Source: Planktothrix pseudagardhii (GTDB taxonomy: Bacteria > Cyanobacteriota > Cyanobacteriia > Cyanobacteriales > Microcoleaceae). Taken from it: DNA of 64,000 nucleotides. Below the pieces are notes generated by a model. The model did no database searches and was not told the origin of the DNA. It saw only the letters and a program-made list of their open reading frames with translations. Below are positions 8,301 to 54,146 of the stretch, piece after piece. The DNA lies in the NCBI RefSeq assembly GCF_904830925.1, contig NZ_LR882967.1:3298106-3362105 (forward strand). The letters run 5' to 3'. Made by a program: the position numbers and the translations under genes. Positions within the stretch are counted from its first letter, which is position 1, and the number at the start of each line of letters is the position of its first letter.

Positions 8301-11300
8301 TTGATTGATAGCGATATGACTGTTGATGGGCAAGGACATACCATCAATGGGGATAATAATAATGATGGTACTGCGGATCAAGATGACCGTCCGATTTTCT
8401 TTGTCAAATCAGGGAATGTGAAATTTAAGAACCTGACCCTGAAAAACGCAGTTGCTAAGGGAGGCGATGGCTATAACTCCGGTGGTGGTGCGGGGATGGG
8501 AGGGGCACTGTTTATTTATCAAGGGAATGTCACGGTTGATGGGGTGAAGTTTGAGGGGAATGAAGCTAGAGGTGGTAATGGTACAGGGGGCAACGAGCAG
8601 TTTGGTGGTGGAATTGGGTTGCAGAAGATAGCAGCTAACAACGGTAGCAATGGTGGCTACGGTAGGAAGGGCATCAACGGCAGGAACGGCGAATGGGGCG
8701 ACAACGGCGGCAACGGCGGCGAAGGCGGCTGGGGCGGCTGGGGCGGCAGTGGCGGCAAAGGCGGCGAAGGCGGCAGAGGCGGCATCGGCGGCGACGATGC
8801 CATCGTCGGCATCGGCGGCAGTGGCGGCAAAGGCGGCGAAGGCGGCAGTGGCGGCTTCGGCGGCAGAGGCGGCTTCGGCGGCAAAGGTGGCAGAGGCGGC
8901 ATCGGCGGCAGAGAGGGCATCAGCGGCGTTGAAGGCACCGGCGGCCTTGGCGGCAGAGGCGGCTTCGGCAGCGGCGGCGGCAATGGCGGCAGTGGCGGCA
9001 TCGGCAGCGACGGCAGTGGCGGCTTGAGCAACTACGGCGGCAGAGGCGGCTTCGGCGGCGGCAGTGGCGGCATCGGTGGCAGCGACCTCATCTTTGGCGG
9101 TGCAGGGATGGGAGGAGCGATTTTTGTCCGGGAAGGCAACCTCACCATCACAGGCTCCAGTTTCTCAAATTCCAGAGCCGTTGGAGGATCAGGAACTGAC
9201 GATCGTGTCACCTCCGATGATGGACAAGGGTTTGGAGGAGCTATATTTGCCATCACCCAAGCAACGATAGATGCTCAGAAGGCGATTAATGACCAAGGTT
9301 TACCCACCTCACCCCCAACCGTCACCATTAGCAGTGACACCACCTTCTCAGGGAACTATGCCTTCAATGCAGCCACCAAAACTCAAGACTTTCAAGGAAC
9401 TAACCTTAACACTTATGCTGTGTTCAGTGGCGATATTAAAGTTGCCACCCCCGCAGCTATCTCCCAAACCATCAAAGCCAAAGCTTTAGATGGCCCCATC
9501 TCTGGAGCCACAGCCTTCCTAGACACCAACTTCAACCGCACCCAAGATAGCGATGAACCTGGTGCAACCACAGATGCTGCGGGTAATTTCACCCTGGAGA
9601 TTGCGGGTAACTTCGACCTCAACAGCAATGGCACTCTCGACTTCGATGAAGGGGAATATGTGGTCGTCGGTGGCACCGATGCCATTACCGGACAAGCCTT
9701 TACAGGCACACTGCGGGCAGTTCCCGGTTCTACGGTAGTTACCCCTCTAACGACTTTAATTTCTACCCTCGTCGATACAGGACTCACCCCAGAAGCATCC
9801 GAAACCCAAGTCAAAACTGCTTTGGGACTCCCCAGCACCATTAATTTAGCCACCTTTGATGCCATCGCAGCCGCCCAAGCGGGTTCTCCTGAAGGTTTAG
9901 CGGTGTTAGCGGCACAAGTGGCAGTGCAAACCCTGATTAGTCAAATCAGTAACTCCCTGCAAACGGTTATCGGTGTTAGCAGTAATAGCTTAGATGCTCA
10001 GGTGACTGGGAATCTAGCCCAACTCCTGCAAAGTGGCAGTTTCAATCTCAGTGATAGCACAGCGATTCAAACTTTGATTACTAACACAGTTGGTAATATA
10101 AACAGTTTATTAGCAGAGGTAGACCCAGCAGACAACACTATTAACCTAGAGGCGATTACCAACAATGCGGCTCAATTATCCCAAGTGATTGCCGCCAGTA
10201 ACCAGCAAATCCTGACCTCCACCACCACTGATGGCATCTTCCAAGCCCAAAAAGTCGCCCAAACCAGCGTCACAGAAGATTTAAGTGCCGCCTTCAGTGG
10301 TACAAAATCCTTTGACGAAGTCGTAGCTGAGAATACTGGAGAAGCCCTAACCACTCAAATTGCTACCACCACCATCGATACTTCTGTTATTGACCAACCC
10401 CCAACAGATCCCAACAACCCAGACACAGGAGGAACCATCATTGATAACGGTAACATTGACCCGAATCAAGAGGTTATTAATAGTAGCACCGTTGGGTTAA
10501 TAAATTCCGTTAATCCCACAACTCCAACTCCCTCAACTCCCACCCCAAAAACAACAAATCCCTCATCCCTGAGCGACCCCATCGAACAATTTATCGCTCG
10601 GAAAAATCTAACCTCCATTCCCACCAGTAACCCCCCCGATGACCTGCTCTTAGGAGATGAGCGTCCCAACTCCCTCAGTGGTGGTATCGGTCAAGATACC
10701 CTACTCGGTTATGGTGAAGTTGATTTCCTCTCAGGAAACCTAGGTCAAGATGTGATTTATGGTTTCCTTGGAAACGACCTAATTTATGGTGGAGCCGATG
10801 AAGACTGGGTGGGAGGCGGTAAAGACAATGACCTGATTTTCGGAGGTTTAGGAAACGATACCCTCAGTGGCGATTTAGGCAATGATACCGTATTAGGAGA
10901 AGTTGGAAACGACCTGTTAGTTGGTCATACTGGAGAAGATCTGTTGTCAGGAGGTACAGGGAACGATAACCTTTACGGTGGCGACGATAACGATCTGATT
11001 CATGGCGGTCAAGGCGACGATTTTGTAGATGGAAGTAACGGCGATGATTTAGTCACAGGAGATTTAGGCAATGATACCCTTAATGGTGGAGTCGGAACAG
11101 ATTCCCTCATTGGCGGTCAAGGAGCCGATATCTTTATGTTAAATCCGGGTGAAAATGGTGATTTTATCCTAGATTTTGTTGGAGGTAAGGATCTGTTAAA
11201 ATTGACGCAAAATTATAATTTTAATCAGCTTACCATCCTTCAAGGGAGTGGAACTCAAGCCGGAAATACCTTGATTCAAGTCGCAGCCAATAATGAACTT

Positions 11301-11363
11301 TTAGCCACTTTAATCGGTGTTCCTGCTAACTCAATTACCGCTAATTCTTTTACCCTTAATTAA
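1638..11363 (+). CDS. Giant secreted repeat adhesin, continuation after the IS (about 3240 aa in the window). Domains in order: VCBS-like tandem repeats, FG-GAP propeller, cadherin-like and dystroglycan-type Ig-like domains, parallel beta-helix region, Gly-rich region, C-terminal RTX calcium-binding repeats.
   Basis: One continuous ORF. The ORF track starts it at an internal TTG at 1662, but the frame is open from 1638. The domain order is read directly from the translation. The C-terminal GGxGxDxLx nonapeptides (about 18) and the non-repeat tail are typical of T1SS substrates. Confidence 0.8.
   Translation: [3241 protein letters not shown]
5440..6535 (+). repeat. Seven FG-GAP repeats of about 53 aa each, predicted to form a 7-bladed integrin-alpha-like beta-propeller.
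   Basis: There are seven copies of ...[27 protein letters not shown]...[18 protein letters not shown]..., each with the Ca-binding-like DxDxDG signature (DFDKDGDTD). Confidence 0.8.
6886..7843 (+). repeat. Two nearly identical copies (about 320 bp each; 6886-7210 and 7519-7843) of a cadherin-like domain. A dystroglycan-type putative Ig domain lies between them.
   Basis: The sequence ACCCTAACCGTTAACGAAGACAACAACTACACCTTTACGACGGCGGACTTCGG...CAACTGAATGGCACTGCTGTT is identical at about 6899 and about 7532. The protein reads [49 protein letters not shown]...FKFTVNDG. The interdomain [30 protein letters not shown] is a He_PIG/CADG-type motif. Confidence 0.7.
8690..9075 (+). repeat. GGC-rich, low-complexity region of about 390 bp encoding GG-x-GG-x glycine repeats. 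Local GC far exceeds the 40% background.
   Basis: The DNA is GGCGGCNNNGGCGGC 15-nt units encoding [29 protein letters not shown].... Antisense frames translate as PPLPP artefacts. Confidence 0.8.
10640..11150 (+). repeat. RTX (hemolysin-type) calcium-binding nonapeptide repeats.
   Basis: The translation reads [73 protein letters not shown]..., with GGxGxDxLx periodicity. Confidence 0.8.
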
Positions 11364-13864: not shown

Positions 13865-14785
13865 ATGAGTAAATTAAGAGACTATCTGGACAAGAATCCC
13901 CAGCAAGCAAAAAGGCTATTAGGGATGGAATATGAACAGATGATAGAACTCATTCAAGCTGCGGAGTTATTAGAAGAAGAAAAACGACAGGAAAAAGAAA
14001 AAACTAAAATCAGGTTGATTAAAGCAGGTGGGGGTCGTCGGCAGAAATTATCTGTGGAGGAACAAATCTTACTGACTCTAATTTATCTGCATCAAATGCC
14101 GACATTTCAAATGTTAGGGTTACAGTTTGAAGTCAGTGAATCAACAGCGAATGATATTTTCCATAACTGGATAAAAATCTTGAGAGAATTACTACCAGCG
14201 AGTTTGCTAGAGCAAGTAAAAAAAAACGAGAGTGATTGGGAGTGGGTAGAAAAAATTCTGGTGGAATTTGAGTTAGTAGTAGATAGCTATGAACAGCCCA
14301 GGGAAAGACCAACAGACAATGAAGAGCAGAAAAAATATTACTCAGGAAAGAAAAAGACACATACCTTTAAAAATCAAGTCATTGTCATGCCAAATGGAAA
14401 AGAAATAGTGGATGTAGCTGTGGGTTATACCGGAGCAACAAGTGATCTGAAATTGTGGAGAGAAAGAAGCCAGGAATTGGGGAATAATCAAAAATACAGA
14501 GGGGATAAAGCTTATGTAGGAGAAACAGCAATTAATACACCGTATAAGAAACCGAGGAATCAAGAGATGTCGGCGGAAAAGCGAGAAGAAAATCGGTTAA
14601 AAGCCCAACAAAGGATTGTAGTTGAACATTTAATAAGACTGATAAAAATTTATCGAGTTGCTTCAGAAAGATTTCGGTTAAAGAGGCAAAATTATGAAGC
14701 AGTAATCTTGACAGTATGTGGATTAATAAGATGGCGAATAGGAGCGATTGTATTACCATCTAAGAATTGCCCAGAATTCTTTTGA
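13865..14785 (+). CDS. IS5-family (DDE_Tnp_4 / Harbinger-like) transposase.
   Basis: The central motifs YSGKKKTHTFKNQVIV...VAVGYTGATSD...YRGDKAYVGE...NTPYKKPRNQEMSAEKREENRLKAQQRIVVEHLIRLIKIYR fit DDE_Tnp_4. A short GGGGTAAAA...TTTTACCCC inverted repeat sits just upstream (13826-13858). Confidence 0.75.
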   Translation: MSKLRDYLDKNPQQAKRLLGMEYEQMIELIQAAELLEEEKRQEKEKTKIRLIKAGGGRRQKLSVEEQILLTLIYLHQMPTFQMLGLQFEVSESTANDIFHNWIKILRELLPASLLEQVKKNESDWEWVEKILVEFELVVDSYEQPRERPTDNEEQKKYYSGKKKTHTFKNQVIVMPNGKEIVDVAVGYTGATSDLKLWRERSQELGNNQKYRGDKAYVGETAINTPYKKPRNQEMSAEKREENRLKAQQRIVVEHLIRLIKIYRVASERFRLKRQNYEAVILTVCGLIRWRIGAIVLPSKNCPEFF

Positions 14786-14830
14786 GAAATAATTGTATAT
14801 CAGAGATAAAATTCATTAGTTATTATTAAT

Positions 14831-15295
14831 GTGACTGAAAAAGCCTATGAATCCGTTACTTTTGGAGAAGCCGGCACAGGAGTGCTAGAGATTCCAAAAG
14901 TAGCGATAGAGGGCATTTGGAGATTTTCGGAGATGTCTAGTGGTGAAAGTGATCAAGTTGCATTAGCGGAAATCGGGGACTGGTTGAAGCGATGGCTAGA
15001 GGCTGTGAATATTTCTCTAACCGATAAAACCCAGTTCGAGGAAGCAACGCGCCATTTACAGTTCGCCATCTTGGTGACAGTGTTAGCGAATCGGTTAAGC
15101 TTTGTGCTTGACCACCTCAGTGCTTTAATGCGATCGCAGGTGATCGACTTTCACGACACTAGCTTATCCCTGGTCAATCGCCCACCACGAGACTATTTAG
15201 CCATTGTCCCTTCGTCACCAGTGGGCAATATCCTCGGCTTTCGATATACCAGCGATCGCCGCCTGCTGGGCAGTTATAATGATGGAAGGAGTTAG
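14831..15295 (+). CDS. Hypothetical protein, possibly a fragment.
   Basis: This is an ORF only. I recognise no motif. It lies in the IS/fragment-rich region. Confidence 0.25.
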   Translation: MTEKAYESVTFGEAGTGVLEIPKVAIEGIWRFSEMSSGESDQVALAEIGDWLKRWLEAVNISLTDKTQFEEATRHLQFAILVTVLANRLSFVLDHLSALMRSQVIDFHDTSLSLVNRPPRDYLAIVPSSPVGNILGFRYTSDRRLLGSYNDGRS

Positions 15296-15647
15296 CATTC
15301 TCGCCCTAGTTTTTTCGCCGTTAGTCATCGGAATATTCAGTAACGACACTGAAGTCATAGCAACCACTACTACCATTCTGCGTATTCATATTTTTTACCA
15401 AGCTGGCGATGCTATTTTTATGATTTACCGAGCCGCTTTGGTGGGATTAAATGATACTTTTTATGTGCGAAATATTAGTTTATTAGGCGGTTGGTTTGTA
15501 ATGATACCTGTTTCATTATTACTAACAAGCGTTATGTCTTTCGGCGTAGTAGGGGCTTGGCTTAAACTAACCCTTAATGTGTTAATCAGTGCGATATTCT
15601 ACGCAGGACGTTTTCACTTTAAATTGAGAGATAGAATAAACAATTGA
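15290..15647 (+). pseudogene. C-terminal fragment of a MATE-family efflux transporter gene.
   Basis: ...ILALVFSPLVIGIFSNDTEVIATTTTILRIHIFYQAGDAIFMIYRAALVGLNDTFYVRNISLLGGWFVMIPVSLLL... matches the last TM helices of NorM/DinF-type MATE proteins. The N-terminal two-thirds are absent. Confidence 0.6.
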
Positions 15648-15880
15648 GAAAAGTTAAAAACTGATTTTGATGTATTTTTACAAATCCTCTTTAATGTTTA
15701 TTTAAGCCGCGGGAAATTGGAATCTATTCAAAATGATAAACTGGTTGTTCAATGTCATACAATGTTCGGGATGATAACGTACCAACTTCTCAATCAGATT
15801 ATCAAATCGGTTCATACCCGGTTTTAAGGCAGAACGAGATAAACGATATAATGGCATCGGGACAGGAACCCCCTTCAAAT

Positions 15881-16999
15881 TCAGGGCTGTTTCATTTTCC
15901 CAAATTGGGGAGTCAAATTGAGTCCCCAATTTTTAGGAATGAGGCGAAAAAGTTGTCCTTCTGTTATTGATACAAAACCCCAACTTCTGAAAAGATTGAT
16001 TACCAGAGTTTTAAGAGTTGAAAAGTTGCTAGCTGCTTGAAAGTTACGAATTCGGCTTTTATCTTCTTGAAAAATTACATCTTTTACCCAATGGTATTGA
16101 TTCTCAATCCCCCAATGTCCTTTAATGATTTGAGCTAAGGTTTGAGCTTCGTTAACGGCACTACTGATATAATATACTTTTTCTTGATAGGGTTTTTTTC
16201 CTCTGTTGCCACTTCTTTCTATCTGAATCACAAGTTTCAGATGTTTCCAGCCTTTGTGAAAGTTGTTATTGACTTGATAAATGGAAACTTTTCGAGTCAC
16301 TTTTCTGCCATGGCTGTGTTCATGAGTCACATCTACACTCACAGGATTTTCACTTTTTATTACCGCTTCAACTTGCTCATATAACTTTTTTTGATTTTTC
16401 TTTAAAGCCATTATATAATCATTCCCGCTCTCAATAACTAGGGCAGCAGTTTTCTGATTACAGTGCAACGCATCAAAGGTTATTACTTTTCTTTTTAACT
16501 GGCAATCCCTTACTATCTTTTGGGCTTGGCTGATTTCTGATTCTTTTTTGTTCTCCATCTTTCTCAGGTTTAATACGCATCCTGTTCTTTGACTAAACAG
16601 TGCAACAATCATCACAAAATTTTGGGATTTATCTCCAAAATCTTTGAGAGTGCTTCTCAGGCTTTTTCCATCTACTGCTAACCAATCTAGTTCTTCTTGA
16701 TGCGGATAATTACAAGTAGCCCATTCATTAAATATCTCAATTAAATTTAACCAATCTACTCCTTGTATTACTCTTCTTATTGTTGAGTATGATGGCAGTT
16801 TTTCTAGCTTGATTTTTAAAACTTGACTCAGTTGGTATTGATTGATTTTCGCAAAATTTTCGAGTTCTCTGTACCCTAAATTTCTCGACATTAGCCCCAA
16901 AATGACTATTAATAATACTAGCCATATTGGATGCCTTGTTCCCTGGGCTTTCCGGTAATCCTTGACTTTTTTCAGTTTTTCTATTAGAGTTGTTAGCAT
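15881..16999 (-). CDS. ISAs1-family transposase (H-repeat-associated, DDE_Tnp_1 with N-terminal DDE_Tnp_1_assoc domain).
   Basis: The N-terminus KDYRKAQGTRHPIWLVLLIVILGLMSRNLGYRELENFAKIN is the ISAs1-associated domain. The DDE core includes ...LAVDGKSLRS...ITFDALHCNQK...HWGIENQYHWVKDVIFQEDKSR. Confidence 0.8.
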   Translation of the reverse strand: MLTTLIEKLKKVKDYRKAQGTRHPIWLVLLIVILGLMSRNLGYRELENFAKINQYQLSQVLKIKLEKLPSYSTIRRVIQGVDWLNLIEIFNEWATCNYPHQEELDWLAVDGKSLRSTLKDFGDKSQNFVMIVALFSQRTGCVLNLRKMENKKESEISQAQKIVRDCQLKRKVITFDALHCNQKTAALVIESGNDYIMALKKNQKKLYEQVEAVIKSENPVSVDVTHEHSHGRKVTRKVSIYQVNNNFHKGWKHLKLVIQIERSGNRGKKPYQEKVYYISSAVNEAQTLAQIIKGHWGIENQYHWVKDVIFQEDKSRIRNFQAASNFSTLKTLVINLFRSWGFVSITEGQLFRLIPKNWGLNLTPQFGKMKQP

Positions 17000-17253
17000 C
17001 TTTATTTTTACAAAAAAATCAGCGACCGCTTTTGATTTTATCAGCTAGCAATCGCTATTTCTTTACTCTTTTCCCCCCGACTTTGAAACAGCCCTGGTTC
17101 AAGTCGGGGGTGATGCCTGTTATGAAAATTATGGAGGGTGTGAGCATTTCCTCTCTAGCAGAGCTAATGCTAGAGCAATGGGCATTGGCTCTGCTCCAGT
17201 CAGCATCCCCATCCACTGAACTCGATGACAGTATGGAGGAAATCGCTCTATGA
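16990..17253 (+). pseudogene. Probable 3' remnant of an upstream biosynthetic gene cut off by the ISAs1 insertion. Its stop overlaps the NRPS start codon (ATGA).
   Basis: The ORF ends ...SISSLAELMLEQWALALLQSASPSTELDDSMEEIAL. Its TGA overlaps the ATG of the NRPS at 17250-17253. Its 5' part runs into the ISAs1 element, so only the last 65 or so codons can be native. Confidence 0.3.
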
Positions 17254-20200
17254 ACCTTAAGCAATTTGTAGCTGAACTCGCCCTAGCTGGTGTGAAGTTG
17301 TGGGTCGAAGACGACCAGTTGCGCGTGCGGGCACCAAAGAAGGTACTGACACCAGAGGTACGTAATTTATTGGCATTGCATAAGGCAGAACTTGTAAAGT
17401 TGCTACAGAACAGCAATGCGATCGCCAATGATACTGACCTACCCCTTCTAAGAGTTTCGCGAACTGGTAACTTGCCTCTGTCTTTTGCCCAAGAAGGACT
17501 GTGGTTCTTGAGCCAGTTGGAGCCAACTAACCCCTTCTACAACGTACCACTAGCTCTGCGACTTAATGGTTCTCTCAACGTTGTCGCTTTAGAGAAAAGC
17601 CTCAACAAGATAATTCAACGCCACGAGGTCTTACGCACCAACTTCACAACGGTTGAGGGGCAACCCGTTCAGGTTATTGCTCTTGGCTTGACCTTGAGTG
17701 TGCAAGTCATAGATTTGAGTGAGCTACCTGAGAGTGAAAGAGAAATTGCTTGGGGGCTAAAAGCCAGGGCACAAATCCAGCAACCCTTTGACCTCAGTAG
17801 CTCTGGGTTGATTCAAGCTTCTGTGCTAAAGCTAACACCGACAGAACATATCTTGTTACTAACAATACATCACATTGTCTGGGATGCTCCTTCAGAGGGC
17901 GTATTGGTCAAGGAGTTAGCAGCTTTCTACACAGCCTACTGCAATGACTTGCTACCAGAGCTACCAGAGCTACCGATTCAGTACGCCGACTTTGCTGTTT
18001 GGCAGCGGCAGTGGTTACAGGAAGACATACTAGAGTCTCAACTTGCTTATTGGAAGCAACAACTGTCTGGTGCGCCAGAAATATTGGAACTGCCAACTGA
18101 CCGAGTGCGAAAAGCAACTCAAACGTTTCGAGGGGCGTGTCACCGACAAGCACTCTCAAAAGAACTAACAGAGGCTTTGATGATTTTAAGTCAACGCAAA
18201 GGAGTTACTCTGTTTATGACGCTGTTGGCGGCGCTCTTCACATTGCTTTACCGTTATACAGAGCAGACCGATATTTGCGTAGGCACGCCTTACGCAGGCC
18301 GGGAGCGCCGTGAGCTTCAGGGATTGATTGGATTGTTTCTCAATACGTTGGTTCTGCGGACTGATATATCAGGTAATCCGAGTTTTGAGGAGCTACTCTC
18401 AAGAGTCCGGGACGTGGCTTTGGGAGCATACGCTCATCATGACCTACCGTTTGAAAAGTTATTAGAACAATTGCAGCCAGCGCGTAACTTAAGCTACACA
18501 CCGTATTTCCAAGTGAGGTTTGTGCTTTACCCAGCGATGCAGATAGACATGGAAGGCTTAACGGTGAGTCCAGTAGCGGTAGAAACAGCTACGGCGAAGT
18601 TGGATTTGTTTGTAGCTTTCGTCAACAGCGACTCTGGACTAATCGGGACGTGGGAATACAATACTGACTTGTTTGATGCCAGTACGATCAATCGCATGGC
18701 TCAACATTTTCAGACCTTACTAGAGGGAATTGTTGCTAATCCTCAACAGAAGGTTTCAGAATTGCCATTGCTCACAGAGCCAGAGCGACACCAGCTATTA
18801 GTAGAGTGGAACAACGCCACAAAAGAGTATCCCTTCAATAAGTGTATCCACCAGTTATTTGAGGAACAGGTGGAGCGATCGCCTGATGCTATTGCGGTGG
18901 TTTTTGAAGGGGAGCAACTGACCTACCAAGATTTGAACCAACGGGCGAACAGAATAGCACATCACTTGAAAACTCTAGGTGTGGAGCCAGAAGTGCTGGT
19001 GGGCATCTACGTTGATCGCTCCTTAGAGATGGTAGTGAGTCTACTTGGCATCCTCAAAACTGGAGGGGCTTATGTGCCTTTAGACCCATCCTATCCCAAA
19101 GAGCGCTTAGCGTTCATGTTGCAAAATTCACAACCAAAGGTGTTGTTGACTCAGGAGTGCTTGATAACAGAACTGCCTGAACATACGGCACAAGTTGTTT
19201 GCTTAGATACAGATAGGCATCTCATTGCTCAACACTCAGAAGAAAATTTAAACCAAACAGCAACAGTTGCTAATTTAGCCTATGTCATTTATACCTCTGG
19301 CTCAACGGGAAAGCCAAAGGGAGTACAGGTGACACACGCTAATTTGTGTCACTATGCCCAAGCAATGAGTCAAGTGCTAAATATCACAGCAGAAGATGTA
19401 TATTTGCACACCGCATCGATTGCTTTCTCATCTTCTGTCAGACAGTTGATCGTGCCTCTGGCTAGTGGGGCAACTGTCAAAATTGCAACTTCTGAACAGA
19501 GAAAAGACCCACAATCACTATTTACGACAATTAAACAACATAGTGTGACAGTTATTGATATTGTCCCCTCTTATTGGCGTAACTGCATTCATACACTTGC
19601 TAGCTTAGAACCTGTTACGAAACAAGCACTGTTAGATAACAAACTGCGTTTAATTGTGTCGGCGAGCGAACCGCTGCTGTCCGATCTTCCTACTCAGTGG
19701 ACGTTTGGTTTTCAGCACAAAGCACGATTAATCAATATGTTTGGTCAAACTGAAACTTGTGGAATTGTTGCCACTTATCCAATTCCGGCACAACAGGATG
19801 AGCCAATCAAAATTGTCCCTATCGGTCGCCCGATCACCAACACACAAATTTATCTGCTCGACTGCCATCTGCAACCAGTCCCTGTTGGTGTACCTGGGGA
19901 AGTGCATATTGGTGGTTTTGGACTGGCGCGAGGCTACCTCAACAGCCCAGAATTGACAAAAGAAAAATTCATCCCCAACCCCTTTAGCCAAGAAGAAGGA
20001 ACACGCCTCTACAAAACCGGGGACAATGCCCGCTACCTTCCAGACGGTAACATTGAGTTCCTTGGTCGGCTGGATCGTCAAGTGAAGATTCGCGGTTTCC
20101 GTATTGAACTCGGAGAAATCGAAGCAGCGCTAGCTCAACACCCAGAGGTACGGGAGACAGTAGTTTTAGCAAGGGATGACCAACCAGATAACAAACGACT

Positions 20201-21503
20201 GGTAGCTTATGTTGTTCCCAACCATGAACCTCCTGCCACCATTGAACTGCGGCACTTCCTCCAACAAAAGCTCCCAGACTACATGGTGCCGGGAGCCTTT
20301 GTGATGCTTTCTTCTTTACCTCTCACCCCCAATGGTAAGGTAGACCGTCGCGCCTTGGAGACACCAGATACGGAATTAAGTAACTCAATGGGCTTTGTCC
20401 CTCCCCGTGACACAGTTGAACAGCAACTACAGCAAATTTGGTCAGAGGTTTTGAAGCTTCCGACTGTTGGAATGAAGGATAACTTCTTTACTTTCGGAGG
20501 TCATTCTCTTTTAGCTGTACTCTTAATGGCTCAAATTTCGCGGCATTTTGGGAAAAATCTGCCCATAGCAACGCTTTTCTCTAGCCCAACTATCGAACAG
20601 CTAGCTAGTTGTCTTCGATCCGAAACTCATTCCTTGCCTTGGTCTCCTTTGGTAGCAATTCAGTCTGGCACCGAGAAGCGACCTTTCTTCTTTGTGCCTG
20701 GAGTTGGGGGAAATGTGATTTACTTATATGAGCTAGCGCGTCATCTTGGATCTGAGCAACCCTTCTACGGTCTGCAAGCACGGGGACTGGATGGCGAATC
20801 AGAGCCTTTTACACAGTTGGAAGAGATAGCCACCTACTATATTGAAGCAATACAGACAGTTCAGCCCTCTGGTCCGTACCTGCTGGGAGGGCATTCGTTT
20901 GGAGGTGTAGTTGCCTTTGAGATGGCAACTCAGTTGCTCAAACAGGGGCATGAGGTCGCTCTACTTGCAATTATTGACGTTGTTGCGCCAATTGTTGCTA
21001 ATAAGCCGAATTATTCTGATGAAGATGAGGTGGCATATCTTTTTGATTTTGCCAGCTATATTGAATATATGTTCTCCCTCAAGTTGGAGGTATCTAAAGA
21101 AACTCTTGCTTCCCTATCTCAGGAGGAGCAATTGAACTATCTCAAAGAACGGTTGATACGGGTCAATTTGCTACCCCCTGATGCGGGAATAGGGTTAGTA
21201 CGGGGGCTAGTGCAAGTATACATTGCGTCCCTGAAAGCTCATCGTGCTTATTTGCCTTCGGGGCTGCAACAAGCTCCCATTACTCTTTTCCGTTCTAGTG
21301 AGGTTGATGTATTTGAGGGTGATACAGAAGAGTTGAAACAAAGGCGAAAAGAACCTGCTTTGGGCTGGAACGAGTTTTCTTCTACTATAGACATTCATGT
21401 TGTTCCAGGGAACCATAGCACCATGATGCAACAGCCGCACGTACAGGTGTTAGCCACACAACTTCTCTCTTGCCTAAAGCAAACACAGGCTCCATTGGCT
21501 TAG
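17250..21503 (+). CDS. Single-module nonribosomal peptide synthetase: N-terminal TubC-type docking domain, then C, A, T (PCP) and TE domains.
   Basis: Docking domain: MNLKQFVAELALAGVKLWVEDDQLRVRAPKKVLTPEVRNLLALHKAELVKLL. C domain: HHIVWDA motif near 17868. A domain: A3 LAYVIYTSGSTGKPKGV near 19290, A5 NMFGQTE, A7 YKTGDNARY, A8 GRLDRQVKIRGFRIELGEIE, A10 PNGKVDRRAL. T domain: FFTFGGHSLLAV, Ser near 20503. TE: GGHSFGG near 20889, with a C-terminal GNHSTMM His. Confidence 0.85.
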   Translation: MNLKQFVAELALAGVKLWVEDDQLRVRAPKKVLTPEVRNLLALHKAELVKLLQNSNAIANDTDLPLLRVSRTGNLPLSFAQEGLWFLSQLEPTNPFYNVPLALRLNGSLNVVALEKSLNKIIQRHEVLRTNFTTVEGQPVQVIALGLTLSVQVIDLSELPESEREIAWGLKARAQIQQPFDLSSSGLIQASVLKLTPTEHILLLTIHHIVWDAPSEGVLVKELAAFYTAYCNDLLPELPELPIQYADFAVWQRQWLQEDILESQLAYWKQQLSGAPEILELPTDRVRKATQTFRGACHRQALSKELTEALMILSQRKGVTLFMTLLAALFTLLYRYTEQTDICVGTPYAGRERRELQGLIGLFLNTLVLRTDISGNPSFEELLSRVRDVALGAYAHHDLPFEKLLEQLQPARNLSYTPYFQVRFVLYPAMQIDMEGLTVSPVAVETATAKLDLFVAFVNSDSGLIGTWEYNTDLFDASTINRMAQHFQTLLEGIVANPQQKVSELPLLTEPERHQLLVEWNNATKEYPFNKCIHQLFEEQVERSPDAIAVVFEGEQLTYQDLNQRANRIAHHLKTLGVEPEVLVGIYVDRSLEMVVSLLGILKTGGAYVPLDPSYPKERLAFMLQNSQPKVLLTQECLITELPEHTAQVVCLDTDRHLIAQHSEENLNQTATVANLAYVIYTSGSTGKPKGVQVTHANLCHYAQAMSQVLNITAEDVYLHTASIAFSSSVRQLIVPLASGATVKIATSEQRKDPQSLFTTIKQHSVTVIDIVPSYWRNCIHTLASLEPVTKQALLDNKLRLIVSASEPLLSDLPTQWTFGFQHKARLINMFGQTETCGIVATYPIPAQQDEPIKIVPIGRPITNTQIYLLDCHLQPVPVGVPGEVHIGGFGLARGYLNSPELTKEKFIPNPFSQEEGTRLYKTGDNARYLPDGNIEFLGRLDRQVKIRGFRIELGEIEAALAQHPEVRETVVLARDDQPDNKRLVAYVVPNHEPPATIELRHFLQQKLPDYMVPGAFVMLSSLPLTPNGKVDRRALETPDTELSNSMGFVPPRDTVEQQLQQIWSEVLKLPTVGMKDNFFTFGGHSLLAVLLMAQISRHFGKNLPIATLFSSPTIEQLASCLRSETHSLPWSPLVAIQSGTEKRPFFFVPGVGGNVIYLYELARHLGSEQPFYGLQARGLDGESEPFTQLEEIATYYIEAIQTVQPSGPYLLGGHSFGGVVAFEMATQLLKQGHEVALLAIIDVVAPIVANKPNYSDEDEVAYLFDFASYIEYMFSLKLEVSKETLASLSQEEQLNYLKERLIRVNLLPPDAGIGLVRGLVQVYIASLKAHRAYLPSGLQQAPITLFRSSEVDVFEGDTEELKQRRKEPALGWNEFSSTIDIHVVPGNHSTMMQQPHVQVLATQLLSCLKQTQAPLA

Positions 21504-21577
21504 TAATTGGTCTGTTAAGTGGAAATTTTTGAGGTAATTAACAAGCTCTTTCATTTGACTAAAAAAGCTCAATCATT

Positions 21578-22549
21578 ATGAAAATAGGAATTTTCGACTC
21601 GAATCACAATCTACCCTTGCTAGTAGAACCTGACACAAAACGCGAATCGTCTAATTTTGATTATCTCCTTTCATGGTACAAAGATAATAGTGAACTTTTA
21701 TCAAACAAAATTTTGAAACACGGAGCGATTCTTTTTCGAGGTTTTGATGTCAATACAATCTTAGCTTTTGAAAAATTCGTTAAATCTATTTCAGGTAATT
21801 TAATAGATTATGTTGATGGAAATTCTCCCCGAACCCAACTAGCTAGTGGTATTTATACTTCAACTGAATATCCAGCTGAATACTCCATTAGTTTGCATAA
21901 TGAGTTATCCTACTCTAGCCAATGGCCAGACCAACTCTATTTTTGCTGTATTACTGCGCCTAAAGAGGGCGGAGAAACACCAATTGCTGATAGTCGCCAA
22001 ATCCTCAAAAGTCTTAACCCAAAGATTGTGGAAAAGTTCACACTTAAACAAGTGAAGTATATCCGCAATTTACCTAGTAGTAATGGCATGGGAGTTTCAT
22101 GGCAAGATGCTTTTAAAACTTCAGATAAGTCCCTAGTAGAAGAGCATAATAGAAAAGCTGGTATGGATTTTGAGTGGAAGAAGGATGGAGGATTGCGATT
22201 AAGCCAGATTCGTCCTGCTATTGCAACTCATCCTCGTACAGATGAACAAGTTTGGTTTAATCAAGCCGATCTATTTCATCCATCTACTCTTCCTAAAAAT
22301 ATCTACGAAGCTATGATGTTTTATTTTGACGGTAACGAAGAGGAACTCCCTCACTATGCTTGCTTTGGCGACAATACTCCAATTGATGTTTCAATGCTAG
22401 ATGAAATTAGAGAAACTATTGGTAAACAAACTGTTGTTTTTCCTTGGCGGGAGGGTGATGTTCTAGTCATAGATAATATGTTAGTTTGTCATGGACGAAG
22501 ACCGTTTTTTGGTTCGAGAAAAATTTTGATTTCTATGTCACAATTCTGA
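21578..22549 (+). CDS. Fe(II)/2-oxoglutarate-dependent oxygenase of the TauD/clavaminate-synthase-like family. Probably an amino-acid beta-hydroxylase (VioC/AsnO/SyrP-like).
   Basis: The HxE facial triad start (SLHNELSY) and the C-terminal DNMLVCHGRRPF (second His plus 2OG-binding Arg) are typical of the CAS-like branch of PF02668. The gene sits between NRPS genes. Confidence 0.7.
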   Translation: MKIGIFDSNHNLPLLVEPDTKRESSNFDYLLSWYKDNSELLSNKILKHGAILFRGFDVNTILAFEKFVKSISGNLIDYVDGNSPRTQLASGIYTSTEYPAEYSISLHNELSYSSQWPDQLYFCCITAPKEGGETPIADSRQILKSLNPKIVEKFTLKQVKYIRNLPSSNGMGVSWQDAFKTSDKSLVEEHNRKAGMDFEWKKDGGLRLSQIRPAIATHPRTDEQVWFNQADLFHPSTLPKNIYEAMMFYFDGNEEELPHYACFGDNTPIDVSMLDEIRETIGKQTVVFPWREGDVLVIDNMLVCHGRRPFFGSRKILISMSQF

Positions 22550-22574
22550 TTATCTTAGCTATAAGTGTAAGTAG

Positions 22575-24356
22575 ATGTATCAATTCCAAGAGTCTCTTCC
22601 AAAACTACCTTTGCCCAAACTCTCAGACACCTGCGCTCGTTATATCGAGATGGTAACACCGCTGTTGAGTGACACAGAATTAGAGCGAACTAAGACCGCC
22701 GTAAGGGAATTTCAACAAGGGAGTGGAGTCGAACTACAGAAGCAATTGGAGATGATTGACCGCTCAACTAATACTAACTATTTACAACAATTTAAAGAGG
22801 AAACCTATTTAGAAATGCGGTCTTCACAACTAAATATGAGAAGCACAGGGGTGGCTTCGCCCGTCTTGACAACCTCGAAATATTCCTTTACCCGCATTGT
22901 CGCCATCATAATTTTTAATACCCTCCAATTCCACCTGAAAATCAAATATCGGGAACTAGAGCCAGATCGCGATGTATTTCAACGAAACAAACCTCCCCTT
23001 TGTATGGCTCAGTATGACAATTTGTTTGGCAGTGCGCGAATTCCTGGAATCAAATGTGACAGCTTTCAAAGGGCGAAAAATTCTGAGCATATTGTGGTCA
23101 TCCGACGGGATACGTTTTACGTCTTAAAGTTGCTCCCAGGGGATACGTTACCGTCGGTGGAAGCTGTAGCACAGCAAATTGATTGGATTCTGGAAAATAC
23201 TCATCCAGGGGAACTTCCTGTGGGAGTGCTGACATCTCTCCCCAGAGAACAGTGGGCAACAGTTCGCTCCTACCTCACGAACCTAGATGCAGAAAACGCT
23301 TGCTCTCTAGAACTATTGGATAGCGCCTTATTTGTTGTCTGTTTAGACGAAATAACGCCTCCCGATTTGGAAAGGCTAGCAAGAACTGCCTTTACTGGAG
23401 ATGGTGGGCGAAACCGATGGTTCGATAAACCTATTCGGCTCGTTTTTAACTCTGAGGGTCAGTTCGCTGTAACAATTGAACACAGTAATGTCGATGGTTA
23501 TCCGGTAGCACGGTTGATAAGCGAGGTCAACCGGGAGCTTGAACCCCTTGAAGAATCCCTTACATCCTCCAGTTCAGTCGAACTCGAACCCCCACAGCGA
23601 CTGTGGTGGAAATTAGACCAGAAACTCCGAGAAGAAGTAGCTCAAGCATTAACAGATGCAGAGTGTCTGAGCGAACAAATTCAGATGGGGATAATAATTT
23701 TCGACGAATTTGGGTCAGACTTTATCCAGCAACATGGTTTAATTGCTGATGCTGTGTTTCTCCTGTCGCTACAGATTGCTTACACTCGCCTGCATGGTAA
23801 GATTACTACTAGCGCTTGGCAAGCTGTACACAACAGAACCTTCCGGTACGGGCGGCACGACTACGCCTTAGTAGTTACACCCGAATCTGTAGAACTCATT
23901 CAAGCCTTTACTGAGGGAGCTTCAGACGAAGTGCGATATCGGACTCTAAAACGTGCTGTTAACGCTCATTTATGGCGAGTGTTTAACACTAAAAACGGGC
24001 AGGGAGTGGTCATGCACCTTTATGCGCTTTATAACTTAGCTCGCTATAAAGGCAGCAGTGTTCTCGATATTTTTCAAGATAAAACCTTTGAAGAAGTTAT
24101 CTTAGACCCAAGCTTCTCCGCTTCTGCCCTAAGTAATAAAATGGGTGTAGAGATAGCCTGCCCCAGTCCATGTCGCGACTATGGAATCGGCTATGTCATC
24201 GATCGCAACAAGATTACCTTTGCTGTAACGAGTAAACATCTACAGCCGGAAGATTTCATCGCTCTTGTCAAGCAGTGTCTTTCAGAAATCGGAAAATTGT
24301 TAATAGAGCAACGACACCCAGATTCCAATATAAGAATACATTCATCACCACAATGA
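22575..24356 (+). CDS. Choline/carnitine O-acyltransferase family protein (593 aa).
   Basis: The N-terminal LPKLPLPKLSDTCARYIEMVTPLL matches the conserved LPxLPVPxLxxTLxxYL start of carnitine acyltransferases. The catalytic-His region TIEHSNVDGYPVARL matches the EHSxxDG motif. Length fits the family. Confidence 0.7.
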   Translation: MYQFQESLPKLPLPKLSDTCARYIEMVTPLLSDTELERTKTAVREFQQGSGVELQKQLEMIDRSTNTNYLQQFKEETYLEMRSSQLNMRSTGVASPVLTTSKYSFTRIVAIIIFNTLQFHLKIKYRELEPDRDVFQRNKPPLCMAQYDNLFGSARIPGIKCDSFQRAKNSEHIVVIRRDTFYVLKLLPGDTLPSVEAVAQQIDWILENTHPGELPVGVLTSLPREQWATVRSYLTNLDAENACSLELLDSALFVVCLDEITPPDLERLARTAFTGDGGRNRWFDKPIRLVFNSEGQFAVTIEHSNVDGYPVARLISEVNRELEPLEESLTSSSSVELEPPQRLWWKLDQKLREEVAQALTDAECLSEQIQMGIIIFDEFGSDFIQQHGLIADAVFLLSLQIAYTRLHGKITTSAWQAVHNRTFRYGRHDYALVVTPESVELIQAFTEGASDEVRYRTLKRAVNAHLWRVFNTKNGQGVVMHLYALYNLARYKGSSVLDIFQDKTFEEVILDPSFSASALSNKMGVEIACPSPCRDYGIGYVIDRNKITFAVTSKHLQPEDFIALVKQCLSEIGKLLIEQRHPDSNIRIHSSPQ

Positions 24357-24366: not shown

Positions 24367-25512
24367 ATGGACTTTTCATGGACAGAGGAACAAATTCAGT
24401 TTAGAGAGAAGATTGTTAAATTCGCCCAACAAGAGTTGCAATCAAATCTAATTGACCTAGATTGGCGAGAAGAATTTAACCGAGAAAGTTGGGAAAAATG
24501 TGGGAAATTTGGTCTGATCGGTCTGCCAATTCCTGAACATTATGGGGGAACTGGGACAGATATTCTTACAACGATTTGTGCCTTGGAAGCTTTAGGTTAT
24601 GGTTGTAAAGACAATGGTCTAATCTTTGCCATCAACGCTCATATATGGGCTGGCGAAATACCGATTTTAACCTTTGGCACCGAAGCTCAAAAACAAAAGT
24701 ATCTCCCCAAACTCTGTAGCGGTGAATTCATTGGCGCTCATGGGGCAAGTGAACCAGAAGCAGGTTCGGATATTTACAATCTTAAGACTACTGCCAAAAT
24801 ACAGGGAGACAAGTACATCTTAAATGGTGTTAAGAATTGGGTCACAAATGGTCCAGTTGCTGACCTTTACATTGTATTTGCGAATGTCGCTCCCGAAAAA
24901 GGAAAACGGGGAATTACTGGATTTATCGTCGAAAAAGATTTTGCCGGAGTCGCGATCAATCGTAAAATTTCCAAAATGGGTTTAAGAACGACTCAGTTAG
25001 GTGAACTGTTCCTAGAAAATTGTGAAGTGCCGAGTGAAAATCGTCTTGGTCAAGAGGGTTCGGGACTTGCTATCTTTAATCACAGTATGGAATGGGAGCG
25101 AGGATTCATTCTTGCCAGTGCGATCGGGACTATGGAACGTCTGTTAGAAAGCTGCATTCAATATGCTAGGAAGCGCCAGCAATTTGGTCAATCGATTGGA
25201 AAATTTCAGTTAGTTAGCAGCAAAATTGTTGACATGAAGATGCGACTTGAAACAGCTAGAGCGCTGCTGTATAAAGTAGGATGGTTAAAAAATAATAAAA
25301 AAACGGCGATTATGGAAGCGGCAATGGCAAAACTTTATATTAGTGAATCTTGGGTGCAGTCCTGCCTTGATGCAATTCAGATTCATGGTGGTTATGGCTA
25401 TCTAACTGAGTTAGAACTAGAACGAGAATTAAGGGATGCGTTAGGGAGCAAGCTTTATTCAGGAACCTCTGAGATTCAGTACCAAATAATTGCCCAATTT
25501 ATGGGATTATAG
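24367..25512 (+). CDS. Acyl-CoA dehydrogenase-family flavoprotein. Predicted carrier-protein-tethered prolyl oxidase (PltE/RedW/CloN3/AnaB-like).
   Basis: It has the ACAD fold (MDFSWTEEQ..., GASEPEAGSD, C-terminal ...QIHGGYGY...). It is 381 aa, sits immediately upstream of a stand-alone A domain and a stand-alone PCP, and the stops and starts are closely spaced. Confidence 0.75.
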   Translation: MDFSWTEEQIQFREKIVKFAQQELQSNLIDLDWREEFNRESWEKCGKFGLIGLPIPEHYGGTGTDILTTICALEALGYGCKDNGLIFAINAHIWAGEIPILTFGTEAQKQKYLPKLCSGEFIGAHGASEPEAGSDIYNLKTTAKIQGDKYILNGVKNWVTNGPVADLYIVFANVAPEKGKRGITGFIVEKDFAGVAINRKISKMGLRTTQLGELFLENCEVPSENRLGQEGSGLAIFNHSMEWERGFILASAIGTMERLLESCIQYARKRQQFGQSIGKFQLVSSKIVDMKMRLETARALLYKVGWLKNNKKTAIMEAAMAKLYISESWVQSCLDAIQIHGGYGYLTELELERELRDALGSKLYSGTSEIQYQIIAQFMGL

Positions 25513-25624
25513 AGGGTGATTTTTTGTTTACGCGAGAGCATTTGCGAGATTACGAGACAACGCTGCGGCGCGCTACGAAGAATTGGTACGAATTCATCTC
25601 GCTGTATTATCGTTTGAACATTCT

Positions 25625-27244
25625 ATGGAAGACAGCCCAAAACCCATGCCGTATCTACTGCAACAGCTTTTAGAAATTAGTGCCAAGCAATATCCAGACC
25701 GGGAAGCTGTAATCTATAAAAATAGCAGCATCACGTATCGGGAGTTAGACCAAGTTTCTAATCAGTTAGCCCACCTCTTGATAAGTTGCGGGATATCAAG
25801 AGGCGATCGCGTCGGCATTTACGTGAACAAATCCATTGAAGCAGTCATTGCCATTTTCGGTATCCTTAAAGCTGGATCTGTCTACGTTCCCCTAGACCCC
25901 TTAGCTCCTGCGAAGCGGATAGGCTTTATCATTGACAATTGCCAGATGAAGGCTTTGGTGAGTACCCATAAAAAGATAGCCAGCCTTCAACTGCCAAACA
26001 CCTCTGGTGTCCAGTGCCTGGTACTCGCTGACGATGAAGCACAACAGGACACGGGTAATCTGTCAAATGTCAGGATGGTGTCTTGGCAAGAGGTGTTGCA
26101 AGCACCGCCAAACCCATCACCACCCAGCAATTTGATTGAAGACGATCTTGCCTACATTCTCTACACATCCGGCTCCACTGGCACTCCCAAAGGGGTGATG
26201 ATTAGCCATCGAGCTTCTCTAACCTTTGTCAACTGGGCTTATGATTGCTTTCAGGTACAAAGGAGCGATCGCGTTTCCAATCACGCCCCACTTCATTTCG
26301 ATCTTTCCATCTTTGATATCTTCACCACTATCAAAGCAGGTGCGACTGTCATTCTGGTACCACCGGAACTCTCAGTGTTTCCCAGAAACCTCGCTCAGTT
26401 TATTGAAGAACAACAAATTACCATCTGGTATTCTGTCCCTTCAGTGCTGAGACAGCTAATTGTTTACGGCAACCTGCATCAGGCTCAATTTCCCCATATT
26501 CGGACGATTTTGTTTGCGGGGGAAGTGTTCCCAGTTAAATACCTGCGTCAACTTATGGAGTTGCTACCGCAAGCCAACTACTATAATCTCTACGGACCCA
26601 CAGAAACAAATGTCTGTACTTACTATCCGGTAAAGGAAATTCCTCCTGAAGAGGTAAGAACTCTGCCCATTGGCAAAGCTTGTGCCAACACAGAGGTATT
26701 TGCCGTCAATGAACACAAAGAAATTACCAAACCAGGAGAAGTTGGGGAACTTTACGTGCGTAGCCCCTCCTTAATGAAAGGATACTGGGGAAATCATGAC
26801 AAAACCCAACAGGCTCTCACACCTTTCCCCGTACCAGGTTGCGGATGGTTAGAAAAAGTTTACCGAACTGGGGATTTAGTGAAACTCAATTCTGATGGCA
26901 ACTATATTTATTTAGGTCGTCGCGATAACCAGATTAAGAGCCGAGGATACCGAATTGAACTGGATGAAATTGAAACGACGCTATACGCTCATCCTGCAAT
27001 TGTTGAAGCAGCCGTAATTGCTATTCCCGATGAGGAAATCGGCAAGAAAATCAAGGCTATAATTGCCACACAGGATGGAAATAATCTCAAAAAGAGCGAT
27101 GTAGAATATTTTTGTGCACAGCGTCTACCTAAATACATGATACCGGAGCTAATTGAGTTTCGTTCTGGGTTACCTAAAACCCCTACAGGCAAGATTGACA
27201 AAACCTTACTGCGTACCGAAGAACTTCAAGAGAATTCAAAATAG
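25625..27244 (+). CDS. Free-standing adenylation enzyme (amino-acid adenylation domain). Predicted L-proline activating (PltF/RedM/CloN4/AnaC-like).
   Basis: Core motifs: YTSGSTGTPKGV (A3), FDLSIFDIF (A4, Asp present), NLYGPTETNV (A5), YRTGDLVKL (A7), GRRDNQIKSRGYRIELDEIE (A8), PKTPTGKIDK (A10). The hand-aligned specificity residues are about D-L-F-Y-L-A-L-V-C-K. The ATG at 25625 is preferred over the TTG at 25583. Confidence 0.75.
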   Translation: MEDSPKPMPYLLQQLLEISAKQYPDREAVIYKNSSITYRELDQVSNQLAHLLISCGISRGDRVGIYVNKSIEAVIAIFGILKAGSVYVPLDPLAPAKRIGFIIDNCQMKALVSTHKKIASLQLPNTSGVQCLVLADDEAQQDTGNLSNVRMVSWQEVLQAPPNPSPPSNLIEDDLAYILYTSGSTGTPKGVMISHRASLTFVNWAYDCFQVQRSDRVSNHAPLHFDLSIFDIFTTIKAGATVILVPPELSVFPRNLAQFIEEQQITIWYSVPSVLRQLIVYGNLHQAQFPHIRTILFAGEVFPVKYLRQLMELLPQANYYNLYGPTETNVCTYYPVKEIPPEEVRTLPIGKACANTEVFAVNEHKEITKPGEVGELYVRSPSLMKGYWGNHDKTQQALTPFPVPGCGWLEKVYRTGDLVKLNSDGNYIYLGRRDNQIKSRGYRIELDEIETTLYAHPAIVEAAVIAIPDEEIGKKIKAIIATQDGNNLKKSDVEYFCAQRLPKYMIPELIEFRSGLPKTPTGKIDKTLLRTEELQENSK

Positions 27245-27263
27245 TTCAATAAGGAGATTGATA

Positions 27264-53927: not shown

Positions 53928-54146
53928 ATTAATTTTAAAGGTTAGATTTTAGGCATTTTCGGGGTAGTCGATTTTAAGCTGGTAGGTCATAGGGGAATAA
54001 TGGGGTTTGTAATTAGTGGTTTAAGCAGCAATGTTTCCGGTGTTGATGTCGAGGTTTTCAACATCTATTTCACCGGAGATGAGTTTGGGGAGGAGGAGAT
54101 CGCGGGTTTGGCGAAGATTTGCATTTTTAAGCTTCAGATGTTTAAC

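Follow-up and report, generated by a model that had tools for sequence, protein, structure and literature searches.

A nonribosomal peptide synthetase (NRPS) gene that opens with a TubC-type docking domain lies directly beside an insertion sequence (IS) of the ISAs1 family in a stretch of 64,000 nucleotides of Planktothrix pseudagardhii DNA (contig NZ_LR882967.1, positions 3,298,106 to 3,362,105; hereafter the window). The DNA between the IS and the NRPS gene contains the end of a polyketide synthase (PKS) gene of ~6.6 kb, which was very probably cut at the ISAs1 element by truncation together with deletion or rearrangement. The 5′ part of the cluster, which comprises at least a C-A-T NRPS gene and 98% of the PKS gene (~9.4 kb in an intact relative), has been deleted or moved. 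A reading of the window made from its letters alone (the sequence-only reading) had proposed that a partner gene translationally coupled to the NRPS was truncated and that the cluster is a remnant lacking its 5′ end. This proposal is borne out by an intact orthologous cluster in Microcoleus, by the match between the remnant and the end of the orthologous PKS, and by the lack of other orthologous PKS DNA in the window.

The polyketide synthase remnant and its intact orthologues

Uninterrupted orthologues, with the PKS gene present upstream of the NRPS gene, occur in Microcoleus sp. D2_18a_B4 (L004; JAUBTL010000004.1), which was found by scanning genomes with the acyltransferase-like gene of the cluster as seed, and in GCA_036705105.1 (L013; JAUBTS010000003.1), which was found through a phmmer match of the stump (P0241); the L013 contig is 99.6% identical to L004. 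In L013 the genes are arranged as a C-A-T NRPS (932 aa), a PKS (2203 aa), a TubC_N-C-A-T-TE NRPS (1416 aa), a TauD-family dioxygenase, a carnitine-acyltransferase-like gene and a methyltransferase; the gene order in L004 is a partial view. The orthologous PKS of 2203 aa has the domain order KS-AT-DH-cMT-KR-ACP, terminates in STELDDTMEEIAL and overlaps the NRPS gene by ATGA. By blastn, L013:16462-23636 aligns with window positions 17106-24282 at 92.96% identity over 7182 nt (93.04% for L004). The window and the Microcoleus loci thus share the PKS tail, NRPS, TauD and acyltransferase genes at 93% nucleotide identity, together with the ATGA overlap and the tail motif. They differ on both sides: Microcoleus retains the C-A-T NRPS and the complete PKS (2203 aa) upstream and the methyltransferase downstream, whereas the window has the IS upstream and a cassette of prolyl-PCP dehydrogenase, adenylation domain and peptidyl carrier protein (PCP) downstream. 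More distant relatives are a soil-metagenome contig (L002), in which the NRPS is 83% identical and the upstream gene ends in LGLDSLMAIELRSWLNQETGVQLPVMTIMQGPSISQLAELILEELALAKIMVDAPPSTELAEQMEEIAWL, and a Leptolyngbyaceae metagenome-assembled genome (L003), in which the NRPS is 62% identical and is overlapped by ATGA by a 3289-aa NRPS-PKS gene ending in PVIKIMQGPSISQLAEFILEELAAEIMQDAALSTEAEDMEEIAL.

No other sequence orthologous to the PKS or to the upstream NRPS was found in the 64-kb window by tblastn with the L004 PKS or by blastn and tblastx with the whole L013 contig, and the remaining window matches in these searches are to paralogous A and C domains. Because the left flank of the IS is unrelated, no PKS or NRPS remnant is present there and the IS has no clean target-site duplication, the 5′ part must have been deleted or moved.

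The open reading frame (ORF) at 16990-17253 (plus strand) starts with TTG, has 87 codons and ends in STELDDSMEEIAL. The sequence-only reading took this ORF as the stump of the partner gene; the ~48 codons at 17106-17250 are indeed ancestral, but codons 1-36 belong to the IS, where they run antisense to the transposase leader. Read as a whole, the 87 codons make up a chimeric frame and not a gene. The ancestral portion encodes helices III-IV of an acyl carrier protein (ACP), a linker and a C-terminal docking motif, with one codon deleted relative to the orthologues. In tblastn the stump is 86.7% identical to the end of the L004 PKS over the last 45 aa, and the intact C-terminus LGLDSLMAIELRNRLNNEMGVNLSVMKIMEGVSISSLAEVMLEQWALTQIQSASPSTELDDTMEEIAL corresponds to GV-MPVMKIMEGVSISSLAELMLEQWALALLQSASPSTELDDSMEEIAL in the window. 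Alignments of the stump region took in L002, L003 and L004, and identity to the more distant PKS tails is 64% (L002) and 56% (L003).

A word-indexed homology search with the 51-aa stump query found nothing. A phmmer search of the stump against 1.84 billion representative proteins gave seven matches at E ≤ 0.001, and all six with a reported aligned stretch cover query residues 6-51 at their extreme C-terminus. Each of the four matches scanned with Pfam carries a PP-binding (ACP) domain, in two cases inside full PKS modules. The expectation of the sequence-only reading that the stump would resemble the C-terminus of an assembly-line protein therefore holds for PKS/ACP ends only, and the motif is that of a PKS ACP rather than an NRPS COM region.

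The stump is not a functional ACP, if such an ACP is taken to be a four-helix bundle with a phosphopantetheinylated serine in an (L)GxDS(L) motif. In the orthologues the LGLDSL motif with this serine lies 14 residues 5′ of the breakpoint, and it is absent from the window; the sequence LGLDSLMAIELRNRLNNE is the 5′ half of the ACP, the part missing next to the stump. The Pfam PP-binding profile did not match the stump even at E ≤ 10. Two metagenome scans, for which a 24-mer specific to the window and a 27-mer common to the window and L004 were used, gave no match and no IS-free allele.

The docking domain, its tail and the state of the synthetase

The N-terminus of the NRPS is a TubC-type β-hairpin docking (bHD) domain, as the sequence-only reading had recognized. 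Pfam finds TubC_N, Condensation, AMP-binding, PP-binding and Thioesterase in the 1417-aa ORF, and TubC_N (PF18563) matches residues 4-53 with 59.4 bits (cutoff 26; E 3.8e-16) over profile positions 2-51 of 52. The N-terminal domain also matches solved bHD domains in phmmer, namely those of AerJ (8aqq, 8.5e-9) and TubC (2jug, 1.8e-7) and further those of EpoB (5t7z), Bamb_5915 (6cgo) and Kj12A-C. An AlphaFold2 (AF2) model based on a 41-sequence alignment, which is of moderate rather than high confidence (mean predicted local distance difference test score, pLDDT, 70), has the α-β-β-α-α topology, with a helix at residues 3-12, strands at 16-20 and 23-27, and helices at 35-43 and 45-59. All of the top 11 Foldseek matches of this model in the PDB are bHD domains, and 10 of the 11 superpose with a root-mean-square deviation of 0.9-3.3 Å over 51-63 alignment columns (the outlier, 2jug, at 8.9 Å). 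The domain is placed at the very N-terminus and is separated by a linker of ~20 aa from the Condensation domain, which begins at residue 73; pLDDT is low after residue 60.

The ATG of the NRPS gene (17250-17252) and the TGA of the 87-codon ORF (17251-17253) form an ATGA overlap, and this overlap, the ORF and the ISAs1 transposase gene at 15881-16999 are all as the sequence-only reading described them. A GGAGG Shine-Dalgarno-like sequence lies at 17235-17239 (plus strand), 10 nt 5′ of the ATG. The ATGA overlap is kept in L003, L004 and L013. Within 17232-17253, the docking-motif codons ATG GAG GAA (MEE) contain this GGAGG ribosome-binding site (RBS), so that docking and translation signals occupy common nucleotides. 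A sigma-70-like site at 16962-16990, directed out of the IS toward the NRPS gene, does not rise above background (regional count 7, shuffled 4.7 ± 2.1).

The short linear motif (SLiM) that is recognized by bHD domains is located on the upstream carrier protein; it is disordered, C-terminal, shorter than ~15 residues, and acidic and then hydrophobic (PMC9113145). Its last residues pair as a strand with β2 of the bHD domain through salt bridges and a hydrophobic face, and more than 1400 SLiM/bHD pairs are known, ACP-borne motifs among them (PMC9113145). The tail of the stump, STELDDSMEEIAL, follows ACP helix IV and, as judged from its residues, conforms to this definition. Across the orthologues the tails are STELDDTMEEIAL (L004/L013), STEAEDMEEIAL (L003) and STELAEQMEEIAWL (L002), so that the proteins encoded upstream of the NRPS share a pattern in which EE is followed by a hydrophobic residue, then by another residue and last by a hydrophobic C-terminus (EEIAL, EEIAWL, EEFFIL). 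In L004 and L013 the PP-binding domain ends ~30 residues before the PKS C-terminus. Among all ORFs of the window, the stump is the sole one with an acidic-hydrophobic tail of the SLiM type.

On the side of the NRPS, strand β2 carries the basic residues R25 and R27. Binding of a stump-type tail to the bHD domain is predicted, and a tethered model made with AF2 without an alignment (tail, GS linker and domain; the candidate docking tail as a peptide is SPSTELDDSMEEIAL) is supportive only: the domain has pLDDT 85-89, MEEIAL is modelled as a β-strand and β2 is lengthened. The window NRPS resembles the systems TubB-TubC, EpoA-EpoB, Kj12B-Kj12C, Bamb_5917-Bamb_5915 and AerJ in that it matches TubC_N and the solved bHD structures, and it resembles known pairs also in the short acidic-hydrophobic carrier tail (EEIAL) of the orthologues and in the basic R25 and R27 of β2. 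It departs from them in that the tail of the window sits on a carrier fragment without a phosphopantetheine site, the domain itself being unremarkable. The docking pair can therefore no longer deliver substrate.

In the intact pathway, the PKS (KS-AT-DH-cMT-KR-ACP) would pass its chain to the downstream NRPS. The tail of the PKS ACP (DDSMEEIAL) would be added as a β-strand to the β-hairpin of the NRPS (residues 4-53) and hold the acyl-S-ACP at the C domain, and the two genes would be translationally coupled through the ATGA overlap, with the GGAGG RBS supplied by the MEE codons. The ISAs1 element now abuts the ACP coding sequence ~14 codons 3′ of the phosphopantetheine serine. This serine, the rest of the PKS and, by comparison with L013, a C-A-T NRPS are missing from the window, and a fragment of a MATE transporter gene and an IS5-type element stand in their place. 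The original product is presumably no longer made.

All genes from the NRPS through the free-standing PCP are intact. The NRPS is 91.9% identical in amino acid sequence to its L004 orthologue. When the window is compared with L004, the NRPS, TauD and acyltransferase genes have dN/dS (nonsynonymous to synonymous rates) values of 0.29, 0.32 and 0.30, respectively. Lineage-specific nonsynonymous and synonymous changes in the first 608 codons of the NRPS, polarized with L001 and L002 as outgroups, number 46:36 in the window and 24:19 in L004 (Fisher p = 1). These comparisons give no sign of relaxed constraint or decay in the NRPS, which means that the truncation is recent or that the module is still useful. 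As nonsynonymous changes are not in excess in the NRPS, the truncation probably took place late compared with the ~7% divergence that separates the window from the Microcoleus orthologue.

The ISAs1-family element, its flanks and the history of the breakpoint

The element at the breakpoint belongs to the ISAs1 family by both its transposase and its terminal inverted repeats, which bound an element of the ~1.2-1.4 kb type. The transposase matches the NCBIfam ISAs1 equivalog NF033564 with 260 bits (cutoff 70) as well as Pfam DDE_Tnp_1 and DDE_Tnp_1_assoc. The terminal inverted repeats, CAGGGCTGTTTCA, are perfect over 13 nt (15882-15894 and 17084-17096), and this sequence is present in just two copies in the window (0.09 expected by chance). 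The closest related elements retrieved were L010, L011 and L012, with transposase identities of 87% for the first and 74% for the other two; they are 1425-1427 bp long, have the same 13-mer at both ends, and their similarity to the window begins exactly at the repeat, so that the IS is delimited as 15882-17096. Against L010 (176-1602), nt 1-1145 of the window IS align at 91%, as do the last ~75 nt, and ~205 bp between them are missing. This deletion lies near the 3′ end of the transposase gene, where the last ~23 residues are replaced and the length is kept (compared with P0121 and P0122). From this alignment, the 1215-bp IS can be described as an internally deleted derivative of an element of ~1425 bp, and this copy may have lost its autonomy. 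A megablast search of the IS against plasmids gave no match. Look-ups of the window transposase and of the NRPS by identical sequence returned no record.

Of the inverted repeats and target-site duplication by which the sequence-only reading would have placed the insertion, the repeats were thus found, but no target-site duplication was; the flanks TTCAAATT and GTTCAAGT are ~6/9 alike when aligned. The comparison copy L011 has a near-perfect 11-bp duplication, CCTTAT[T/C]AAGG. The missing duplication at the window IS fits deletion or recombination after insertion.

To the left of the IS, the ~130-codon C-terminal fragment of a MATE efflux transporter gene (MatE positions 76-159 of 161; TIGR00797 297-396 of 396) has no homology to L004 or L013 and is unrelated to the PKS. 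Its derivation as a duplicate of the complete MATE gene at 27648-29015 was ruled out, the two being 25% identical. The 234 bp adjoining the IS (15648-15881) have no detectable homology, including to the PKS and NRPS genes of L004 and L013, and a minus-strand frame at 15702-15881, which had no Pfam, NCBIfam or plasmid tblastn match, was treated as non-coding or unknown. The patchwork at 13865-15647, formed by an IS5-type transposase gene, an ORF and the MATE fragment, indicates earlier rearrangements.

These flanks bear on how the gene was truncated. The position of the IS, taken alone, would agree with a simple insertion in which the element just splits the PKS gene and the 5′ part follows immediately beyond it; this is hardly conceivable, and is refuted by the DNA at 15648-15881 and further left, which has no nucleotide or protein similarity to the L004/L013 PKS or upstream NRPS, and by the lack of a target-site duplication. 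What stands of the claim that the insertion caused the truncation is that the gene ends at the ISAs1 element, but the unrelated left flank and the missing duplication mean that more than insertion took place. The loss probably occurred through IS-associated deletion or through recombination between IS copies. A rather unlikely alternative is that the 7.2-kb block of stump, NRPS, TauD and acyltransferase genes arrived already truncated, or that the truncation was earlier and the IS was inserted later, so that the IS marks the break and did not cause it. Synteny with L013 indeed stops at both 17106 and 24282, the latter inside the 3′ end of the acyltransferase gene, with different genes beyond, and the neighbourhood is a patchwork with the MATE fragment and IS5-type and IS630 elements. 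The C5...G5 flanks, TTCAAATT and GTTCAAGT, are also partly similar and resemble the palindromic targets that related copies have, L011 with its 11-bp duplication among them, and 17097-17105 is not PKS-like. On the other hand, no more than 9 nt separate the IS repeat from the point where similarity to the PKS begins again, an unlikely coincidence if the IS had nothing to do with the break; the would-be duplication is mismatched at 2-3 of its 8-9 nt, against perfect inverted repeats; and there is ample documentation of IS-linked deletions in clusters of this kind. Several points nevertheless weigh against truncation by the IS as preferred here. Positions 17097-17105, the 9 nt that separate the IS end from the PKS homology, show no match to the orthologues, and just after the GGGGG run (17106-17110) the window is one codon short of them; this leaves room for more than one breakpoint and more than one order of events. 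With C5/G5 at both flanks, the IS could have entered a pre-existing palindromic junction, the truncation having come first. Since the searches covered the 64-kb window, the missing 5′ part may still exist beside another IS copy at a different place in the genome. The docking itself is a prediction, and the tethered model was built without an alignment.

Other explanations concern the present role of the NRPS and not the break. In the alternative offered by the sequence-only reading, the free-standing PCP downstream has become the partner of the docking domain; the C-A-T-TE portion would then condense the acyl group carried by this PCP, probably pyrrole-2-carboxyl, with its amino acid, and the cluster would be rewired and not dead. 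This would be in keeping with the intact state, common strand and close spacing of the NRPS, TauD, acyltransferase, ACAD (acyl-CoA dehydrogenase-type), A and PCP genes, with the lack of relaxed selection on the NRPS and with the promiscuity of SLiM/bHD interfaces (PMC9113145). It is very improbable all the same, and the pairing finds no support, because the PCP stops at helix IV without an extension or acidic motif, a tail of this kind occurs on no window ORF but the stump, the cassette lies outside the block held in common with the intact cluster, and the A-PCP pair directly 5′ of the acyltransferase-like gene in Nostoc sp. CHAB 5844 points to that enzyme as the client. A broader possibility, improbable though somewhat less so, is that the decapitated bHD-C-A-T-TE protein has been retained under selection and rewired, with a SLiM-bearing carrier encoded elsewhere in the genome or the adjacent pyrrolyl-S-PCP without a SLiM as the donor, and makes a new small acyl-amino-acid product. 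As a minor variant, the 48-residue stump peptide, if translated from internal ATGs, would be a free SLiM decoy on the docking domain. Truncation of the PKS gene at the ISAs1 element, with deletion or rearrangement of the 5′ part, remains the explanation adopted here.

Several observations concern the fine structure of the junction. Just outside the right IS end, the 13 nt TTCAAGTCGGGGG (17098-17110) repeat IS nt 10-24 in inverted orientation (13 matches, one gap of 1 nt). They include one arm of inverted repeat I17, a perfect 10-bp stem (17074-17083 / 17101-17110) that holds the terminal inverted repeat in its loop. A second IS end, a template switch, target choice and a chance overlap with the PKS GGGGG run are candidates for the origin of the inverted 13-mer; a P-nucleotide-like origin was a misfit, the terminal 9 nt being lacking in the duplicate. 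In the window IS and its three related copies alike, 5-6 consecutive C residues stand at a distance of 8-9 nt beyond the transposase-proximal end (CCCCCGACTTGAAC, CCCCCCTTAATAAG, CCCCCCTTATTAAGG and CCCCCCTTTTTAAGG; window 15868-15881 with 17097-17110, L010:162-175, L011:777-791 with 2217-2240, L012:127-141), and a matching G run is found on the opposite side in the window and in L011. This suggests that the IS prefers palindromic targets with a C run, an AT-rich segment and a G run. Extended inverted repeats of ~26 nt that would include the C5 runs were dismissed, since this segment is far more variable among the copies than the IS interior.

Downstream genes, precedents and other features of the window

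Table 1. Positions of the features at and around the breakpoint, with the basis of each assignment.
Feature	Position in window	Strand	Basis
IS5-type transposase	13865-14785		Pfam/NCBIfam
154-aa ORF	14831-15295		no family assigned
MATE efflux transporter C-terminal fragment, ~130 codons	15204-15647	+	MatE; TIGR00797
ISAs1-family transposase ORF, 372 aa	15881-16999	-	NF033564, DDE_Tnp_1, DDE_Tnp_1_assoc
ISAs1-family IS, 1215 bp	15882-17096	-	inverted repeats and related copies
IS-derived 5′ part of 87-codon ORF, codons 1-36	16990-17096	+	within IS bounds, no PKS-orthologue homology
Junction nucleotides GTTCAAGTC, ambiguous origin	17097-17105	+	no match to L004/L013
PKS remnant, last 48 codons and stop, 148 nt	17106-17253	+	blastn/tblastn to L013/L004
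C-terminal SLiM region STELDDSMEEIAL, core MEEIAL	17212-17250	+	core conserved in orthologues
NRPS, 1417 aa, intact	17250-21503	+	bHD (TubC_N)-C-A-T-TE by Pfam
bHD (TubC_N) domain, NRPS residues 4-53	17259-17408	+	PF18563 match
TauD-family dioxygenase	21578-22549	+	Pfam
Carnitine/choline-acyltransferase-like gene	22575-24356	+	Pfam
Prolyl-PCP dehydrogenase-type ACAD	24367-25512	+	NCBIfam PigA, RedW
Stand-alone A domain	25583-27244	+	Pfam
Free-standing PCP, 89 aa	27264-27533	+	Pfam

The block syntenic with L013 runs into the 3′ end of the acyltransferase gene and stops there, at 24282. The ACAD gene starts 11 nt after the stop codon of the acyltransferase-like gene, and the cassette to which it belongs is absent from the Microcoleus cluster, where a methyltransferase gene is found instead. 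The ACAD is closest to the L-prolyl-PCP dehydrogenases PigA (447 bits) and RedW (400 bits), both scores being under the equivalog cutoffs, and the ACAD, A and PCP genes (24367-27533) look like a prolyl-to-pyrrolyl-S-PCP cassette. The PCP ends at helix IV with VIKSFVISRL (VNVIKSFVISRL) and has neither an extension nor an acidic tail. The acyltransferase-like gene of Nostoc sp. CHAB 5844 is immediately preceded by an A-PCP pair; because of this adjacency and of the stop in synteny at 24282, the PCP is more likely a client of the acyltransferase-like enzyme than of the NRPS docking domain.

The acyltransferase-like gene is found in varied biosynthetic contexts (window 22575-24356, L005:10001-11737 and L006:7525-11761), and in Microcoleus BROC3 it follows multi-module NRPSs without TubC_N, at 90% nucleotide identity. 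It behaves as a mobile tailoring module, and its acyl donors are possibly bound to carrier proteins.

Comparable losses have been described for other cyanobacterial NRPS/PKS clusters. In Planktothrix, 90% of mcy was lost in association with an IS (PMC2464740), and IS-rearranged cyanobacterial peptide clusters include cases with ISAs1 elements (ISPlr1) beside mcy and inside mic (PMC9366434). The window shares with these cases a genome of the Oscillatoriales type, a breakpoint occupied by a transposable element, and the loss of most megasynthase genes with retention of flanking or tailoring genes and short remnants. It differs in the cluster, an uncharacterised NRPS-PKS-NRPS cluster with TauD and carnitine-acyltransferase-like genes, in the IS copy, which is another one (internally deleted, 1215 bp), and in that the terminal NRPS module is intact. 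The locus is thus a further case of a known phenomenon, in which SLiM/bHD pairs and ISAs1 elements are both well-described families; it adds an ISAs1-family case to the IS erosion of cyanobacterial natural-product clusters and opens no new question. For genome mining, the cluster should be scored as truncated although its NRPS, TauD and acyltransferase genes look complete, because the C-A-T NRPS and PKS that fed them are gone, and the Microcoleus loci (JAUBTL010000004.1 and JAUBTS010000003.1) are the ones for product discovery. The locus is also a natural SLiM/bHD example in which the tail has outlived its carrier protein, and it could serve docking studies as a matched peptide/domain pair.

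Elsewhere in the window, a 3233-aa ORF (1662-11363) with FG-GAP/VCBS, cadherin-like and RTX calcium-binding repeats encodes a giant, adhesin-like secreted protein; an IS630 transposase gene on the minus strand (463-1575) lies before it, and sulfotransferase and GNAT genes come after it. A gene of the psbA/psbD type for a reaction-centre protein is located at 45608-46690. The region 50778-57469 contains a type I restriction-modification system (hsdR 50778-53927, hsdM 55910-57469), and two FtsH paralogues follow hsdM at 57563-59416 and 60976-62874.

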